Assembly (NCBI GenBank): GCA_965248535.1
Contig: CBDFJR010000002.1
Coordinates: forward strand, 96,001 to 160,000
From: Phormidesmis sp.
GTDB taxonomy: Bacteria; Cyanobacteriota; Cyanobacteriia; Leptolyngbyales; Leptolyngbyaceae
DNA length: 64,000 nt
Reading direction: 5' to 3'
A program made the position numbers and the translations under genes. The notes beneath the pieces are model-generated. The model worked only from the letters and a program-made list of their open reading frames with translations, made no database searches and was not told the DNA's origin. This document shows, piece after piece, positions 54,650 through 63,177 of the stretch. Numbering within the stretch: the stretch's first letter is position 1; each line of letters starts with the position of its first letter.

Positions 54650-56110
54650 TTGAGACCTGATTTGAGCACTCTAGCCAGAGTCTTAAAAGAATTGGTTGCT
54701 ATGTCAAAAAACTATCGTCAAGTCCGCAAGTCAACAGTCGTCAAAAACTCCGCTGGTCAGCAATTCCAACTAGGCGGCTATCGCCCCGAAAAGCAGAACT
54801 CTCAAGACAAAAAATACAGTGCGGGTCGCGATCGTTCCCTGCCTTCTAAAGTCGATCTTCGCGCCTACATGACTCCGGTCGAAAATCAGGGCAACTCCAA
54901 TAGCTGCACCGCCAACGCCATGGCAGGGGCCTATGAATATCTGACAAACCGCCTGCTCGGACAATCGGAAGATGTCAGCCGTTTGTTCATCTACTACAAC
55001 GCACGAGAATTTGACGGCGACCCCAGCCAAGACCAAGGCACATATCTGAAAAGCTGCGTCAAAGTGTTGCGAAAATATGGCGCTTGTTCTGAAAACACTT
55101 GGTCGTTTAACCTCGAACAAATTCTAGAGCAGCCGCCTAAAAAGGCTTATGCAGAAGCCACAAACTTCCGAGTTGAAGACGCGGCTCGTGTGGAGGTCGA
55201 TCTTCACGCCATGCGGAGTTGTCTGGCAGAGGGCTATCCGTTTGCGTTTGGCTTGCAGCTTTTCGAGTCTTTTCAGCAGGCAGGCTCTAGCGGATTGGTG
55301 CCCATGCCTGACCCCGATCGCGAAAAGCACGACGGCGGCCACGCGATGCTGTGTGTGGGCTATTCTGACCCTGATCAAGTTTTTATCGTTCGCAATTCAT
55401 GGGGCGATGACTGGGGCGAGCAGGGCTATTGCTACATCCCTTACGACTACATGACCAAGCCTGATTTTAACCACGACTGCTGGACGATTCGCCAAGTCAG
55501 CGATCGTGACCTGAGTCAGGGCATTCAGGGCAGTTCGGCTCCTCTGTTTAGTGGGTCAAAGGCGGCGATCGCGACTGCATTTCAAACCCCCGGCGCAATT
55601 TATCAACCCTCAGTGATCGCCTTGTTAGAAGAGTCTCACTATGAGACTTACACGGTTGAATATGAAGAAGAGCTTGTCTACATCGAAAACCAAGGGTTTG
55701 TCTCCGTCGATGCTTACGAGAACCTCGATTTTCTCTACTTCCAGGAGTATGACGAAACTGAAGAAGAGTCCGACGACAGCGACGAAGACTCTGAATTCTA
55801 CGAGGAGACTGTAACCGAATACGAAGAAGAGTCCGACGACGAAAAGTCCGACGAAGACGACTCTGAAGAAATCGATAACAGCGACGACGAAGAGTCTGAC
55901 GAAGACGACGAAGAGGAAAGCGACGAAGACGAAGAAGATATCGACGCAGAGACTGAAGGCAGCGACGACGAAGAGGATTCTGAAGAAGAGGAAGATCCTG
56001 AAGAGGAAGATCCTGACGAAGAGGCTTCCGAAGAAAGCGACGAAGAAAGCGAAGACAGTTATGAAGAAGAGTCTGAAGAAGATTTAGGAGGCGATGAAGG
56101 CGAAGAGTAG
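54650..56110 (+). CDS. C1A (papain-like) cysteine peptidase with a long Asp/Glu tail (start probably ATG 54701)
   Basis: QG..NSCTANA, GGHAM..VGY, RNSWG..WG..GY; the C-terminal ~125 aa are mostly D/E/S. Confidence 0.88.
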   Translation: MRPDLSTLARVLKELVAMSKNYRQVRKSTVVKNSAGQQFQLGGYRPEKQNSQDKKYSAGRDRSLPSKVDLRAYMTPVENQGNSNSCTANAMAGAYEYLTNRLLGQSEDVSRLFIYYNAREFDGDPSQDQGTYLKSCVKVLRKYGACSENTWSFNLEQILEQPPKKAYAEATNFRVEDAARVEVDLHAMRSCLAEGYPFAFGLQLFESFQQAGSSGLVPMPDPDREKHDGGHAMLCVGYSDPDQVFIVRNSWGDDWGEQGYCYIPYDYMTKPDFNHDCWTIRQVSDRDLSQGIQGSSAPLFSGSKAAIATAFQTPGAIYQPSVIALLEESHYETYTVEYEEELVYIENQGFVSVDAYENLDFLYFQEYDETEEESDDSDEDSEFYEETVTEYEEESDDEKSDEDDSEEIDNSDDEESDEDDEEESDEDEEDIDAETEGSDDEEDSEEEEDPEEEDPDEEASEESDEESEDSYEEESEEDLGGDEGEE

Positions 56111-56266
56111 GGCTAACCGATAGCGCGATCGCACAAATTCCATCAAAACCTGCTGCAATGCCCAGGCTGACTATTTCAACAGCGTGGGCATTGCCGTGAC
56201 ATAACCCACCATTTATCAAGCAAATTAGACGCTACAATGTGACGGTTGTATTCTGCACGACGAGCC

Positions 56267-57562
56267 TTGATAGAGCGCTATACCCTACCCGAAATGGGCA
56301 ATTTGTGGACTGAAGCCTATAAATTTCAAACCTGGCTAGAGGTTGAGATCGCCGTCTGCGAAGCTCAGGCTGAGTTGGGTTACATTCCGGCTGAGGCCGT
56401 TGCAGACATCAAAGCAAAAGCAACCTTTGACCCCAAACGCATCTTAGAAATCGAGGCCGAAGTTCGGCACGATGTGATTGCGTTTCTCACTAACGTTAAT
56501 GAATCTGTAGGCGAAGCCGGACGATACATCCACTTGGGCATGACCAGTTCTGATGTCCTAGACACCGCCCTGGCACTGCAACTTGTCGCCAGTTTAGATG
56601 TGATTATGTCTCACGTTGAGGCGTTGATTCAGGCACTTCGCTATCAGGCTCAACAGCACCGCAACACCGTCATGATTGGGCGATCGCACGGCATTCACGC
56701 CGAGCCAATCACCTTTGGCTTTAAGCTGGCTGGCTGGCTGGCAGAAATGCTGCGACACCGCGATCGTCTCTGTCAACTCAAAAAAACCATTGCCGTCGGT
56801 CAAATCTCTGGCGCGGTTGGCACCTACGCCAACATTGACCCTCGCATTGAGTCTTTAACCTGTCAAAACCTGGGACTCGAACCCGATGCTGCCTCGACGC
56901 AGGTGATTTCTCGCGATCGCCACGCCGATTATATGAATGGCTTGGCGCTGTTAGCCTCGTCGATCGAGCGTTTTGCCGTAGAAATTCGCAACCTTCAGCG
57001 CACCGATGTTTTAGAAGTTGAAGAGTTTTTCTCAAAGGGACAAAAAGGCTCCTCTGCAATGCCCCATAAGCGGAACCCGATCCGGTCAGAGCGTCTCACC
57101 GGAATGGCTCGTCTCATCCGAGGCTATGCGGTTGCCGCGATGGAAAACGTTGCGCTCTGGCACGAGCGAGATATTTCCCATAGCTCAGTCGAACGGGTGG
57201 CCTTTCCCGATGCCTGCATTTTGACTCACTTCATGTTGGTCGAAACGACTGACTTGGTGAAAAACCTGCTGGTTTACCCCGACAACATGGCGCGCAACAT
57301 GAACCTTTATGGGGGAGTCGTTTTTAGTCAAAGAGTTTTGTTGGCGCTGATTGGCAAAGATGTCAGTCGCGAAGAGGCGTATACGATCGTGCAGTCATGC
57401 GCTCATCAAGCCTGGAACAAACCCGAAGGTGACTTCCGCAAGTTGATTAGTGAAGACCCCCGCGTGGTCGAAAAGCTCTCCCCGGCTGAAATTGCTGATT
57501 GTTTCGATCCTCAACATCATCTCAAAAATCTAGATCAGGTTTATCAACGACTAGGCATTTGA
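56267..57562 (+). CDS. purB: Adenylosuccinate lyase
   Basis: IERY, HLGMTSSD, GRSHG.HAEP, GSSAMPHKRNP. Confidence 0.97.
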   Translation: MIERYTLPEMGNLWTEAYKFQTWLEVEIAVCEAQAELGYIPAEAVADIKAKATFDPKRILEIEAEVRHDVIAFLTNVNESVGEAGRYIHLGMTSSDVLDTALALQLVASLDVIMSHVEALIQALRYQAQQHRNTVMIGRSHGIHAEPITFGFKLAGWLAEMLRHRDRLCQLKKTIAVGQISGAVGTYANIDPRIESLTCQNLGLEPDAASTQVISRDRHADYMNGLALLASSIERFAVEIRNLQRTDVLEVEEFFSKGQKGSSAMPHKRNPIRSERLTGMARLIRGYAVAAMENVALWHERDISHSSVERVAFPDACILTHFMLVETTDLVKNLLVYPDNMARNMNLYGGVVFSQRVLLALIGKDVSREEAYTIVQSCAHQAWNKPEGDFRKLISEDPRVVEKLSPAEIADCFDPQHHLKNLDQVYQRLGI

Positions 57563-58241: not shown

Positions 58242-60161
58242 TCACTCCATTCGGGCAAAATGCTCTAGTAGCATCCGATGGACAAAGATATAACCGCCGC
58301 CAACTTTTTGCAGAAAAATGCGCTCACTGGCGTAGTCGAGGAAGCGGGAATAGTCCCAGGGAATACAATTGTTGCGGTGAAGGATGGATCGTAAGATGAA
58401 GTGTTGGAGGCAGGCTTTACCACCTCCAAAAAACAGCCCAAAGATCAGTCCGAAAATTAGCCCCAGTCCCAGCCATTGTAGTTGCCCTAGAAAAATTACA
58501 ATCAGCAAGCCAATTCCTGCGCCTATCATTCCTAAAATAAGGGCGTTTCTAACTGAGTTCCAAATTCCTTGATTAGGAGATGTTTTTCTCTCTATTTTTG
58601 GGCCGATCAGTCCACCTAGCAAGCCCAAAATTAGTCCACTAATTAGCCCATACGCGATTATTAAGATAGGCATGAGTGGTGATAAAAGAGAAATTCCCAC
58701 AATTATTCCCAAAGGCAATCCTCCAAGGAATCCTTGTTTCGCAGACTTTATGGCTTCTTGCCAAGACCATTTCAAGCTTTCATCTTGCCAAGACCATTTC
58801 AACGTTTCAACTGTTTTGATTTCATCCATCCGCCAAGCTAATTTCCATTCCTCCATCTTCCACCAAGCTAAAGGTAGGACGATACTCATTCCAATGATTA
58901 GTCCCTGTAATGGACTCAATACAAAACAACCAATCAGGAAACCCATCATTAACCCCATCAGGCGAGTTCCCCATTCATAGACCTTTTTTTGGGTCGTTTC
59001 TAACCAAGTCGGCTGCATTCCCTCAATAAAAAAGACCGTTTGCGATGCGTGAGACATCCGTTGCGCTAGCCAAGTTAGCCAGTGTATGGACTGACCCTTC
59101 GAGTATTGTTGATTAACTCCCTTTCGCTTGAACATCCGCTCAATATAAGAATTGAATAAGTGTTCACGATGTGCTTCTACTGAACCTGTTTGAAGTATTT
59201 CTTCTACCTTTTTGCCTTGATAAGCCAAAGTCATAACATTAAGCGTTAGAGGAGACTTCGCTAACTCTTGCAGTGCGGTATCTTCGGACAGCAGAGTTTT
59301 GACGGCTTCTAGTTGTTCACCTGCCGCGTCTAAATAGTGGTTAACCTGCTCAGGAGTCAGAGAGCGGATGTAGATCGCGCCCCGTAATTGCAGACGGTTA
59401 GACAGAACTTCATAGTCTGCAATCCGACTACAGACCACTATCTCAGTCTGCCCGTGCGTTTGCATAAACTGGTTGATAGCTTCGACGCAGGCTTCTCGCC
59501 GATCGGACTTTACCTCGTCTAGACCGTCTAGCAGTAGGAGTAGTTGTTGATCTTCAATCCAGGTTTTAGCAAGAGTCTTGGAAACTTTATACTGACTGTA
59601 CAGTTCCTCAATCAGCCAATCTGCGATCGTTTGCCGTTTGCTGCCCCAAGAAGATAAGTTAAACACCACTGGACTCAGCCGACTCAAACCCCCTTCAGCA
59701 CGAGCAATCAAATTCTGTGCCAGTTTTAGGAGGGTTATTGTTTTCCCAGCCCCTGGGTCTCCCAAAATCAACAGAGTTCGCCCCTCTCCGATTTGATTGA
59801 AGACCTCAGTTGCGCCTGTCCCTGAAGGCAAAATTTGTCTGGACTCTTCTGGTAGCTCCTCGAAGCTACTAAATGAACGTTCTATTGCATCCGATCGCTT
59901 TTCTAGACCAAGTTCAATCATTGTCTTGGTGTGCAATGACTTTTCTAAGACCCCTTCAATCCAATAATCTTTGACTTTACTGAGTAAAACTTGCCTCTGG
60001 CGGTATTCTACCTGAGTTAAAGATTGTTCTGCACTGGGTGATTGCCCACTAATTAACTCAGAGACTTGGGAAATGAAGTATTGAGTGACGGCTCCATGAT
60101 TTTCTTGGATAAACCCCTGAACATTTCCGCCAGAGATGTTGACAAAATTATCGGCAGTCAT
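58242..60161 (-). CDS. NACHT NTPase with C-terminal transmembrane region and N-terminal amyloid-like motif
   Basis: Walker A GDPGAGKT, Walker B LLLLLDGLDE, CSR, PL.L, Gly-rich TM helices, C-terminal FLQKVGGGYIFVH. Confidence 0.9.
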   Translation of the reverse strand: MTADNFVNISGGNVQGFIQENHGAVTQYFISQVSELISGQSPSAEQSLTQVEYRQRQVLLSKVKDYWIEGVLEKSLHTKTMIELGLEKRSDAIERSFSSFEELPEESRQILPSGTGATEVFNQIGEGRTLLILGDPGAGKTITLLKLAQNLIARAEGGLSRLSPVVFNLSSWGSKRQTIADWLIEELYSQYKVSKTLAKTWIEDQQLLLLLDGLDEVKSDRREACVEAINQFMQTHGQTEIVVCSRIADYEVLSNRLQLRGAIYIRSLTPEQVNHYLDAAGEQLEAVKTLLSEDTALQELAKSPLTLNVMTLAYQGKKVEEILQTGSVEAHREHLFNSYIERMFKRKGVNQQYSKGQSIHWLTWLAQRMSHASQTVFFIEGMQPTWLETTQKKVYEWGTRLMGLMMGFLIGCFVLSPLQGLIIGMSIVLPLAWWKMEEWKLAWRMDEIKTVETLKWSWQDESLKWSWQEAIKSAKQGFLGGLPLGIIVGISLLSPLMPILIIAYGLISGLILGLLGGLIGPKIERKTSPNQGIWNSVRNALILGMIGAGIGLLIVIFLGQLQWLGLGLIFGLIFGLFFGGGKACLQHFILRSILHRNNCIPWDYSRFLDYASERIFLQKVGGGYIFVHRMLLEHFARME

Positions 60162-60178
60162 TTTCTAAGCGCCCTTGA

Positions 60179-60556
60179 TTAACTGAAGTTTTGAGTTATC
60201 GTCCCAGTATTTTGCTGTGTCAAACCTTGAACTGTACCCCCAGAAATTTGAACACTAAATTTCCCTTCCGCTGCTTCTTGAGGATGTAGTTGTTCCATTA
60301 ACTTTTGAGCCAGTTTAACAATTTCTTCGTCTTTGTCAGCTCCAGCCTCAGTTAATTCATCTTCTAAAAGAGGTCTCGTCTTTTCGGGCTTCTGTTCATA
60401 CTTATCCAGGATAGTAGCTGAATCTGATTTTCCTTGACTCTCAAACTTGTGCTTAATCAAGGCTTTCAAGCCGTTGTAAGCATCTTGAGCGACACCACCA
60501 GCCGTTTTTGCTGCACCAGCTACCAATGCTGCAAGGATAAGAGAAATAGGATCCAT
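60179..60556 (-). CDS. Bell-like helical protein with C-terminal amyloid-signalling-like motif
   Basis: N-terminal MDPISLILAALVAGA, AY..LK..I..KF helix, C-terminal G/Q/N/T-rich tail matching the NACHT N-terminus; RBS AGGAG. Confidence 0.75.
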   Translation of the reverse strand: MDPISLILAALVAGAAKTAGGVAQDAYNGLKALIKHKFESQGKSDSATILDKYEQKPEKTRPLLEDELTEAGADKDEEIVKLAQKLMEQLHPQEAAEGKFSVQISGGTVQGLTQQNTGTITQNFS

Positions 60557-60774: not shown

Positions 60775-61560
60775 GCATAACGGCTCAAATCAGCGGCGGC
60801 AGACAATTTCTGTGACTCCACCGAGACCTCGCGCCCTTCCGCTCCAACGTGTTGTGTACGCCCAGCATGGGTGTGAACTAATGGGGTGAAAGTCCCCTGT
60901 CGGAGAACCAACGTCCAAATGATCCCAAAAGATCCGAGTGACGACAACGACTAGCTTAAGGTAAGGGCGTTTCCGCGAGGAAGGGTCTGAAGGAAGCCAG
61001 CGGCAAATCTGCGAGCTGACGGACAGAAACGTCATAGAAGGCTGAGATTCCTGTGGCAAGTGAGCACAACATCATGAAGCCTTTTGGTTCAGGGAACACA
61101 GTAAATGACGCAGTTGTGCAGAGACAGTTCACGTTCTTATCTGGGGAGATCTGCTCAAAGGGCGGTCTGAGGGTCTACGGGAGTCTGATTGAGGTCTAGC
61201 GGGAAACGGCTAGGGAGCCACGGAACCCTAAGGACATTCAGGCAGCGTGAGTCATGGCAACAGGACTCATGATTGAGCAGAAGTCAGCAGAGGTCATAGT
61301 AGCCAAACACTCACCGTAATGGGTGAGACAGGGTGAAGGGCTGAACCTTAGAAAGCAGGGAGGAGTTGCAAAGCTCGACTGGGCGATGAACCCGAACGGG
61401 GGAGCTATTTTGTCGGCGCTTAACTGCACAACCAGCCCTGGATATTCAGTTCTATTGAACTGGCTTGTCTAAAACTTTTCTGGGGACGCGCCCCGTGCGG
61501 AGCCGCACGCGGGGTGCCGTGGGGACTGGGGGAGAAAATCCCCTGGTTACCCGATTATGC
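60775..61560 (-). other. attC-like recombination site interrupted by a group II intron (86 bp once the intron is removed)
   Basis: On + strand: GCATAAC ggctc aaatCAGCGG...CCGCT...TGTTGT|intron|TATGC; lies 4 bp after the dprA-like stop. Confidence 0.8.
60856..61555 (+). mobile_element. ORF-less group IIC (attC-targeting) intron
   Basis: 5' GTACGCCCAGCATGG; GAGCAGAAGTCAGCAGAGGTCATAGTA; short DV with CGC triad (CGCCCCGTGCGGAGCCGCACGCGGGGTG); DVI with bulged A; ends CCCGAT. Confidence 0.88.
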
Positions 61561-61564
61561 TGTT

Positions 61565-62557
61565 CTACGATGATGCAATAAGACTGAGTTGAACCATCTG
61601 ATTATCTAGAGCCTTGTTCTCATTTACAGAATCACTCCTCTCTAAAATTGAAGTGATTTTTTGAACACCATTTTCCAATGAGATCTCGTGACAGCCTAGT
61701 TGAATTAAGTCCGAATTACCAATTGGGGGTTGTGCCAAGCAGTTTGGTGAGAGAACAAAAACTGGTATGTTCATCGCCATTGCACTTCTAGCAGCATCAA
61801 ACGTGCCACTCATCCTGCCTTTACTATCAATTTCTTGTCCTGAAGCTATAACAACAACTGCATCTGCCAGCGCACAAACCAACTTATTTCGTGCCATAGC
61901 ATTTCGAGCAAGCCACTTTTCTGAAGGGTTGAATTGCGAAAGAACAAGAGTGTTATACGCAGTAAAAAAGGGTTTGAATTCCTTCTTGGCTTCAAAATTT
62001 AGAATGCCTAGACTAAGAATAATCGTAGTAGTACCTTCTGCTTCTAAAGCGCCTAAATGAGCGGCAGAATCAACACCTTTAGCATAACCAGAGACAATAT
62101 TAAACCCTGCTCTAGCTAGTCCCTTTGCTAACTCAGCTGTGATGGCAAGAGCATCTTCACCAACGTTACGCGAACCAACAATTGAAATGCTTGGTGATTT
62201 TGCAAGTGGTGTATGCCCTCTTGCGTACAAGACTGGGGGAATGTTGTATTGCCGCCCATACTTCTTCAGTCTAGAGGGAAAGTCAGGAGATTCAGGATGC
62301 AGAATCTTCACTCTATTTGTCTCTAGCTGTTCGTAAGCGCGTTGAATCAATTCGTAATCCTGTTCATGCGGAAAGGATTTGAGTGTAGTTCTCAGTCTTC
62401 CTGAGATTTTTGGAAAATCTAATTTCCTATTAGTTAGGAAATTGTTAAGATCGGTAGATTCTCCAGATACGAGATCGTGAACTTCCCACAGCAATTTCGT
62501 CCCTATTCCTTTGGCGCGAGCCAACCGAAACCAATCGAAACTGCTGCTGTAAGTCAT
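61565..62557 (-). CDS. DprA/Smf-like protein (ShosA-like)
   Basis: PPVLYARG, SIVGSR, VSGYAKGVD..AH, ARNKLV..LA; ATG 62557 overlaps the PRTase TGA (ATGA). Confidence 0.85.
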   Translation of the reverse strand: MTYSSSFDWFRLARAKGIGTKLLWEVHDLVSGESTDLNNFLTNRKLDFPKISGRLRTTLKSFPHEQDYELIQRAYEQLETNRVKILHPESPDFPSRLKKYGRQYNIPPVLYARGHTPLAKSPSISIVGSRNVGEDALAITAELAKGLARAGFNIVSGYAKGVDSAAHLGALEAEGTTTIILSLGILNFEAKKEFKPFFTAYNTLVLSQFNPSEKWLARNAMARNKLVCALADAVVVIASGQEIDSKGRMSGTFDAARSAMAMNIPVFVLSPNCLAQPPIGNSDLIQLGCHEISLENGVQKITSILERSDSVNENKALDNQMVQLSLIASS

Positions 62558-63177
62558 CTTTTTGTCCTCGTCATCGTTATCGTTAGCACGTAGACTCTCG
62601 CTACACCCCCCTGGAACGTGAGAGCATTGCACACTGCGTTCAAGGTTTCCCCAGACCTAAAGAGATCGTCAAACACCAAAAGAGACTGCTGAGCGTATCT
62701 TTGGTCAGCGACCTGAAACGCACCTTGCATTTGTTGCTGGCGAATTTCAGCGTCTTCTATATCTTTCAGCGCTTGTGTCTGTCTAACCTTGATGAGGTAA
62801 TCGTCTGGTACAGAAAGCCCAGTCTTCTCCCCGATCGCTTTCGCTAATTCTAACACTGGCTGAAAAGGGCGGTCTAATTTGGATGGTGGAACAGCGACGA
62901 TGCTTTGGAAGTAGCGAAAAACCCTAAAATTATTCCGGATATAATTTGCAGCAATCTCAGCCATTGGCTCGACTTTGCTACGGTCAAAATTATACTTTAG
63001 CTGATAGAGAGCTTCACCCAGTTCAGTACGGGTTGTATCAAACCCTCCATCACTCCGAGAAACGCTCGACACTGTATGTAGATCAAGTGCTACTCCATAA
63101 ATCCACGAACCATTAATAACTCTTGGGTCAATATTCACGGTCGAAGCCCGCCCTATCCCGTCTTGTGAAGCTCTCAT
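62554..63177 (-). CDS. ComF-like phosphoribosyltransferase (ShosT-like)
   Basis: LYQLKY, VPPS...R.FQP, PRPP loop LVFDDLFRSGETL. Confidence 0.85.
   Translation of the reverse strand: MRASQDGIGRASTVNIDPRVINGSWIYGVALDLHTVSSVSRSDGGFDTTRTELGEALYQLKYNFDRSKVEPMAEIAANYIRNNFRVFRYFQSIVAVPPSKLDRPFQPVLELAKAIGEKTGLSVPDDYLIKVRQTQALKDIEDAEIRQQQMQGAFQVADQRYAQQSLLVFDDLFRSGETLNAVCNALTFQGGVARVYVLTITMTRTKR

Follow-up and report, generated by a model that had tools for sequence, protein, structure and literature searches.

A cyanobacterial Bell-type protein and a NACHT protein with a variable membrane insert carry matching amyloid-like tags

The present analysis concerns two neighbouring genes in the cyanobacterium Phormidesmis sp. 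(assembly GCA_965248535.1, contig CBDFJR010000002.1, positions 96,001 to 160,000, a stretch of 64,000 nucleotides (nt) that is called the window throughout). Both are read from the minus strand: the first encodes a Bell-type protein of 125 amino acids (aa), the putative effector, and the second, 17 nt downstream, a 639-aa NACHT protein, the candidate receptor, in which several transmembrane (TM) segments are predicted (Table 1). A Bell-domain protein of less than 200 aa, followed by an adjacent and collinear gene whose product has a short N-terminus (here NACHT starts at residue 128), is the arrangement that has been described for Bell/BASS/NLR pairs, in which a Bell effector and a NOD-like receptor (NLR) share a BASS motif. 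An earlier note, made by a model from the DNA letters, had given the spacing of 17 bp, and the open reading frame (ORF) coordinates agree with it.

Table 1. Coordinates of the features of the gene pair and of its surroundings in the window.
Feature	Positions	Strand	Basis
Bell-type effector gene (putative), 125 aa	60179..60556	-	ORF
N-terminal hydrophobic helix, residues 3-16, MEPIS-type start	60509..60550	-	AlphaFold2 helix 3-16
Five-helix domain, residues 1-96	60269..60556	-	AlphaFold2 model
Effector-side amyloid-like tag, residues 102-124	60185..60253	-	sequence VQISGGTVQGLTQQNTGTITQNF
NACHT gene with multi-TM insert, 639 aa	58242..60161	-	ORF
Receptor-side amyloid-like tag, residues 7-29	60075..60143	-	sequence VNISGGNVQGFIQENHGAVTQYF
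NACHT nucleotide-binding domain, Pfam residues 128-277	59331..59780	-	PF05729, E 5.5e-10, above cut-off
Helical domain 1 plus beginning of winged-helix domain, residues 291-388	58998..59291	-	HHalign
Membrane insert of variable sequence and length, residues 389-582; three TM hairpins predicted, joined by charged loops	58416..58997	-	
Conserved C-terminal tail, residues 583-639, probable winged-helix wing, Y-x-F-x-H (H628)	58245..58415	-	
PsyrTA/ShosTA-like DprA and phosphoribosyltransferase pair	61565..63177	-	PADLOC PsyrA E 5.5e-53, PsyrT E 1.3e-16
Group II intron-like element lacking an ORF, upstream of the pair	60856..61555 (ends approximate)	+	Rfam RF02001, RF01998

The two proteins share a tag of 23 residues, which ends the Bell-type protein and begins the NACHT protein. 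The identity of 14/23 that had been claimed for it is confirmed by alignment, against a best off-diagonal 23-mer match of 9, and the local alignment score of 72 was never equalled when the NACHT N-terminus was shuffled 10,000 times (maximum 54). Moreover, a profile of the receptor tag run against the genome's 24,665 six-frame ORFs found two places only at E < 0.05, both in the pair, and a chance or low-complexity match is rejected by these three comparisons. In the methods of Dyrka et al. (bioRxiv 10.1101/2020.01.06.895854) the motifs of a pair are recognized by a local alignment of at least 15 aa with a score of at least 40; the values of 23 aa and 72 were obtained with identical matrix and gap costs. 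Each tag is composed of G, Q, N, V or I at 15/23 positions and contains no proline, while the central G-h-Q-h-G signature of BASS3 and RHIM is absent from both, so that a BASS3/RHIM identity is rejected. A single gene read through a frameshift is likewise rejected, as the gaps of 23 pairs (3-123 nt) are split 8/8/7 over the three frames.

That the small protein is Bell-like, as the earlier note had proposed, is supported by several lines of evidence. The strongest, at the level of sequence, is a direct match: residues 29-107 are identical by eye at 71/79 positions to CCI22909.1, a Bell-side entry in the accessible part of the published BASS dataset (PMC8086366), which argues for the Bell identity of the window protein. 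A precomputed PF20701 (HetE-N) annotation is carried by 116/120 of the homologues listed, and the top Atlas clusters are also HetE-N (score 0.96). In an AlphaFold2 model built with 42 sequences, five main helices and a short sixth are placed over residues 3-90 (pLDDT 74-92 for residues 1-90), whereas residues 105-125, which include most of the tag, have no structure in this monomer model (pLDDT < 50); a helical domain with a disordered C-terminal tag is what the text of Dyrka et al. describes for Bell proteins. Helix 1 is moderately hydrophobic only (KD 1.74), and among the 42 homologues S5, I7, A10 and L11 are invariant and P3 and G14 at least 90% conserved. Searches against profiles of solved structures gave no significant match for either protein of the pair, and NCBIfam and PADLOC provided no name for them beyond partial NACHT matches. 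The named homologues of both proteins are all cyanobacterial, and no Bell relative was confirmed among 600 pattern matches checked in viral contigs.

The NACHT protein has intact Walker A (residues 134-141) and Walker B (D212-E216) motifs, whose residues are invariant in 17 orthologues, and its Walker B follows the D-[GAS]-h-D-E form of the NACHT clade, for which the D-G-h-D-E signature has been defined by Kibby et al. (bioRxiv 10.1101/2022.07.19.500537). Pfam found no TPR or WD40 match in the 639 residues, and no repeat domain was found in any of the 18 NACHT partners scanned; since C-terminal TPR, WD40, ANK or LRR repeats define an NLR in the strict sense, this protein is not one. The structural model has low confidence (mean pLDDT 56), and its best Foldseek matches are NLRP3, NLRC4 and NOD2 (E ~4e-6). 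In an HHalign comparison with a TM-less cyanobacterial NACHT family, residues 291-373 align to residues 248-331 of that family (probability 67%, E 5e-5), and residues 614-639 weakly to residues 377-402 (E 0.067; E 0.012 in another search). Therefore about 195 residues would be inserted between these segments, although the assignment of the tail rests on its position and its Y-x-F-x-H pattern, the alignment alone being weak. This pattern we take to be the mark of the NLR winged-helix wing, with H628 presumably the counterpart of NLRC4 H443. In NLRC4, H443 holds ADP (PMC8260849).

Most likely, then, as judged from these alignments, the TM block interrupts the NACHT module ahead of the winged-helix wing, with a conserved cytoplasmic tail after it. 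The earlier note had described TM helices in the place of TPR or WD40 repeats: the protein is indeed repeat-free, whereas its TM block is not a C-terminal substitute for repeats, because alignment to TM-less NACHTs would place it inside the switch module. Three long hydrophobic blocks lie within residues 401-581, two of them (476-521 and 539-581) with zero charged residues; each is predicted to be probably a hairpin, and six helices appear in this region of the low-confidence model. From the charged loops that separate the blocks, both ends of the protein may be expected in the cytoplasm. The insert is also the most variable part, its mean identity to the query over 119 homologues being 31%, whereas the nucleotide-binding domain reaches 78%, the tail 72% and its wing part 86%. 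The insert ranges in length from 182 to 317 residues in the 101/120 homologues in which it could be measured. In 3/18 orthologues the tail is followed by one more TM segment and by a Tll0287 domain with a CxxCH motif; this extension hints at input from the far side of the membrane, although it could also be a captured fragment. The extended genes (L007:6398-9109, L010:6398-9118 and L016:6401-9118) read as TM, Tll0287-like CxxCH domain, TM, and that of L007 is followed by a cyclase-like gene.

The pairing of tags extends well beyond the window. From 93 loci, 89 of which had a Bell match, 69 pairs could be scored after those with no downstream P-loop gene, those with a Bell ORF outside 110-200 aa and duplicates had been left out (in L031 the N-terminal window was moved by hand). 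Cognate tags have a mean score of 70.9 and mismatched ones of 31.7; a score of at least 40 is reached by 67/69 cognate pairs and by 20% of mismatched pairings, and none of 20,000 permutations equalled the cognate score, a statistic that is not an independent-sample test because the sequences are related. The BASS-type paired tag put forward in the earlier note is thus a property that co-varies across pairs. Most of the signal reflects the contrast between tag classes, and related Bell proteins carry clearly different tags, each matched by the tag of the neighbouring STAND gene; matched changes on both sides are seen in L020, in L132 and in the Microcystis pair of the BASS dataset.

Both tags are under purifying selection. 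In 21 orthologous pairs pN/pS is 0.16 in the tag and also in the core of the Bell protein, while the receptor tag has 0.27 and the region near Walker B 0.17. The two copies within a locus have a pS of 0.67, that is, their synonymous sites are near saturation, so that neither a recent duplication nor gene conversion can explain the matching tags; together with the low pN/pS it indicates that the match is maintained by selection and not by recent copying. Tag positions 12, 14 and 19 differ consistently between the Bell and receptor sides across orthologues. Disrupted cassettes were also observed, with a truncated receptor in L005 and L019 and a Bell without a tag in L126.

Of 50 proteins encoded downstream of Bells, 18 are NACHT proteins without repeats (2 truncated), 26 nSTAND1 and 1 nSTAND3, and 5 further ones have WD40 among the matches listed. 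The closest Bells pair with NACHT-TM proteins and the distant ones with conventional nSTAND1-WD40 receptors; the latter combination was noted in L022-L059, with several different tags, some of BASS3 type, and the G-h-Q-h-G signature is carried by more distant Bell homologues. According to the text of Dyrka et al., the original BASS screen used two domains, and nSTAND1 was not among them.

The receptor family itself is widespread, with matches at E <= 1e-40 in 143/401 genomes of the class, and was surveyed at 109 loci. Long N-termini occur in 32 receptors, fused to a kinase (19), AAA_35 (4), CHAT (3), a cyclase (2) or TIR (1), or without a match (3). Where the N-terminus is short and an upstream ORF of at least 100 aa is present (50 receptors compared), the tag of the upstream product matches that of the receptor at a score of at least 40 in 34/50 cases. 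These 34 partners comprise 14 Bells of the window type, counting that of the window itself, 6 further proteins judged Bell-like by eye, 2 proteins of CHAT type whose tag is terminal, 1 tandem paralogue and 11 proteins in which the tag precedes a helical domain. The N-terminal slot of the receptors is thus occupied by an output domain in some cases and in others by a tag leading to one, from which the likely direction of signalling follows. A quick tree was made of 70 selected receptors, and those paired with a window-type Bell, 25 in number, form one group in it (support 87).

The 11 partners with a helical domain follow a reverse layout: an N-terminal or internal tag is succeeded by a domain of ~100 aa that ends in a hydrophobic helix. 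In 5 of them the tag and domain stand alone, in 5 behind CHAT and in 1 behind TIR; Pfam confirmed CHAT in 3/5 of the fusions and in 1/2 of the terminal-tag proteins, two proteins being unscanned and one a fragment with no match. This layout was seen in the upstream ORFs of L102, L108 (885-1319), L137, L139, L151 (where the called receptor start gave no tag match) and L181, and in fusions with CHAT (L140-L142, L180, L199) and TIR (L184). The helical domain corresponds to no Pfam family at cut-off and its Atlas clusters are unnamed; the layout is the reverse of that of BASS pairs, and such a protein may represent an undescribed effector or adaptor. A near-identical tag is found on a CHAT-like fragment (L154:3511-3957) and on a Bell (L132:807-1178), both located before NACHT-TM genes, while tandem NACHT-TM genes occur in L171, L185 and L195, those of L185 with similar N-terminal tags.

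As regards genomic context, the GC content of the pair is 0.42-0.45, compared with 0.50 for the genome, and when 7 genomes of the same genus were searched at the DNA level, 6 had the neighbouring gene (56246-57562 in the window), while the pair yielded short scraps only. The Bell family is present in 31/401 genomes of the phylum, and one strain carries it on both chromosome and plasmid. Isolated tail fragments of NACHT-TM genes, with the rest of the gene missing, were noticed elsewhere in the genome (G000:C5, ~74495-74614 and 336335-337109). The PsyrTA-like pair is situated 1 kb upstream of the Bell and NACHT genes. The intron-like element has 8 matches in the genome, the window copy included; sequences closely related to it have deep coverage in two RNA libraries, which, being in the form of contigs, are no evidence of transcription, and the two RNA runs cover essentially this element only, which makes them uninformative on the Bell/NACHT pair. 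Promoter and terminator scans gave results at or below chance. The plus strand (54650-56110) encodes a peptidase of the papain family whose acidic C-terminal tail is very long.

Taken together, the pair is likely to be a two-gene, horizontally mobile cyanobacterial signalling cassette of the Bell/BASS type, in which an activated receptor templates the tag of the Bell protein and the latter attacks the membrane. The NACHT protein would be held in the membrane by its three TM hairpins and have its N- and C-termini in the cytoplasm; a trigger, most probably sensed by the variable insert as a change within or at the membrane, would free the nucleotide switch, and oligomerization of the NACHT domains would cluster the N-terminal tags. 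These clustered tags could then template a cross-beta fold on the C-terminal tag of the Bell protein, which would free helix 1 for an attack on the membrane that ends in death or arrest of the cell, probably as a defence. The anatomy of the two proteins, the match of their tags, its co-variation and the selection on both copies are established here; the templating step is transferred by analogy from BASS1, BASS3 and BASS11, and killing would be expected by analogy with Bab.

A broader and more speculative proposal, which we consider unlikely though worth stating, is that NACHT-TM proteins are widespread membrane-embedded pattern receptors of cyanobacteria. Their hypervariable six-helix insert within the winged-helix domain would sense an intruding membrane protein or envelope damage and pull the wing histidine off the nucleotide, and interchangeable amyloid tags would pass the signal to Bell, to caspase-like CHAT, to TIR or to the unnamed N-terminally tagged helical protein.

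Several observations weigh against the signalling cassette as set out above. In the papers as far as accessible, BASS motifs with experiments are BASS1, BASS3 and BASS11, and the window tag is not among them. The local, older Pfam model of HetE-N matches neither the Bell protein nor the four homologues scanned, and the fold comparison suggested in the earlier note, which brought out the five-helix Bell-type layout, retrieved nothing at E <= 0.001 with Foldseek and no link to HeLo, MLKL or Bab, the best structural Z being 5.5, to unrelated bundles. Within the 22 NACHT-type pairs the advantage of cognate over mismatched tags is small (73.5 vs 69.7, p 0.008, the sequences being related). PADLOC matches were found for 16/121 crudely called ORFs around 18 orthologous loci and for 1/43 control window genes, an enrichment that is weak because many of the matches are generic (kinase, TnpB-like, TPR, methylase). 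As the kinase is the commonest all-in-one form, non-immune signalling also fits. Finally, the presumed outward-facing loops of the insert consist of a few residues only.

This last point bears on the role of the insert, and the chances that it senses the trigger, rather than being a mere anchor, are about evenly balanced. In the corresponding alternative, which is possible but on the whole doubtful, the amyloid-coupled pair is kept and the TM block serves as an anchor, the signal being read in the cytoplasm by NACHT or the charged loops, or the receptor guarding a membrane protein of the host. The very short hairpin turns and the probably cytoplasmic charged loops are in line with it, and low identity need not mean diversifying selection, as TM segments tolerate substitution. 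On the other hand, an anchor accounts poorly for the wide length range of the insert and its position inside the switch module, and for the Tll0287 extensions.

With respect to defence, the cassette might instead serve stress or developmental signalling, such as sensing of membrane or redox state or removal of cells from the filament. Kinases as the commonest fused domain (19/32), the Tll0287 extensions and the weak enrichment of defence genes would suit such a role, and the function of Bell/NLR pairs is called open in the literature as far as accessible; its patchy spread, the coexistence of chromosomal and plasmid copies, the low GC content and the CHAT and TIR partners fit conflict systems better, and we regard this explanation as improbable. 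More improbable still is that the tags form a finite beta-strand docking adaptor with no self-propagating amyloid: the fixed differences between the two copies at three tag positions would agree with it, and the fibril data concern other BASS motifs and not the window tag, while the length, the G/Q/N/V/I richness, the lack of proline and the terminal position are BASS-like, and all BASS motifs tested in the accessible reports formed fibrils. A reversed direction, in which the TM block is a pore-forming effector (oligomerizing STAND proteins with TM segments could conceivably form pores) and Bell its regulator, is very improbable, given that enzymatic output domains occupy the N-terminal slot in relatives, that killing in the experimentally studied system is reported for the Bell-like Bab, and that the hypervariable region is unlike a conserved pore.

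The cassette of 2.3 kb brings together, in one small construct, the role of Bell/NLR pairs and the function of TM-inserted NACHTs, of which no experimentally tested example was found in the literature searched. Natural orthologues with the same tag and a different insert, or with a similar receptor and a different tag, provide ready material for swaps that address the trigger and the specificity of coupling. Since the principle has already been established, the gain would be a new type of sensor and not a new mechanism; if the pattern-receptor proposal is true, amyloid signalling would begin at the membrane without a repeat sensor.

Compared with known systems, the pair is closest to the Bell/BASS/NLR pairs of Dyrka et al. 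(bioRxiv 10.1101/2020.01.06.895854), with which it shares adjacent collinear genes of cyanobacteria, a five-helix Bell of 120-140 aa with a C-terminal tag and a NACHT protein with a matching N-terminal tag. In the accessible text of that preprint the partners are NB-ARC/TPR or NACHT/WD proteins and the word transmembrane is never used, whereas the window receptor is repeat-free. Orthologous pairs are nevertheless present in the published dataset (PMC8086366), so that the system is not an unrecorded one: the pair CCI22909.1/CCI22907.1 appears there with no BASS class assigned, and BAZ82062.1, BAZ83820.1 and PSB32049.1, whose N-termini are identical to those of the NACHT-TM proteins of L010, L011 and L001, are filed under Cya03, that is, BASS9. 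The comparison with BASS and RHIM motifs excluded the BASS3/RHIM signature and, on the receptor side, pointed to BASS9, a label that is loose because the window tag differs by eye from most other BASS9 entries seen; it was made with individual entries of the class, and a search for the tag of the Bell side gave no match in the part of the dataset covered.

The antiphage system Bab/Agp (BASS11) of E. coli (bioRxiv 10.1101/2024.11.07.622273) likewise combines a small helical effector, with a MEPIS-type helix 1 and a C-terminal tag, and a sensor with a matching N-terminal tag. As reported in the accessible text, its abortive infection depends on the tag and killing requires the MEPIS-type helix. 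Agp is a TPR-GreA/B-PIN protein and not a STAND ATPase, whereas the window receptor is a NACHT; the Bab domain is shorter (~80 aa), its tag is different, and its function is proven, while the window pair is known from sequence. In fungal NWD2/HET-S, as far as described in the accessible sources, the tag is also templated from an oligomerized NACHT to a membrane-targeting effector, with a WD40 sensor, two tag repeats on the effector and a HeLo domain as features of its own; profile and fold searches gave no link from the window proteins to it.

The class 4 NACHTs of Kibby et al. (bioRxiv 10.1101/2022.07.19.500537) resemble the window receptor in having multiple TM regions, sometimes inside the NACHT module, and have been proposed to read intramembrane or periplasmic signals, so that envelope sensing by a TM NACHT, suggested in the earlier note, was already in print; the accessible main text mentions neither amyloid nor Bell, and paired tags are a feature of the window. 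A Bell/BASS pair and a TM-inserted NACHT were not found discussed together in the literature searched, which did not extend to papers behind subscription (the journal version of Dyrka et al. among them) or to the supplements of bioRxiv preprints, either of which may mention the combination. In conclusion, the feature is real and agrees with Bell/BASS pairs in every respect that can be tested computationally, although its receptor is no NLR in the strict sense. Most of the system was known before; what is added is a repeat-free receptor with a variable predicted TM insert, from a family whose members carry various fused domains or tags matched to other partners.

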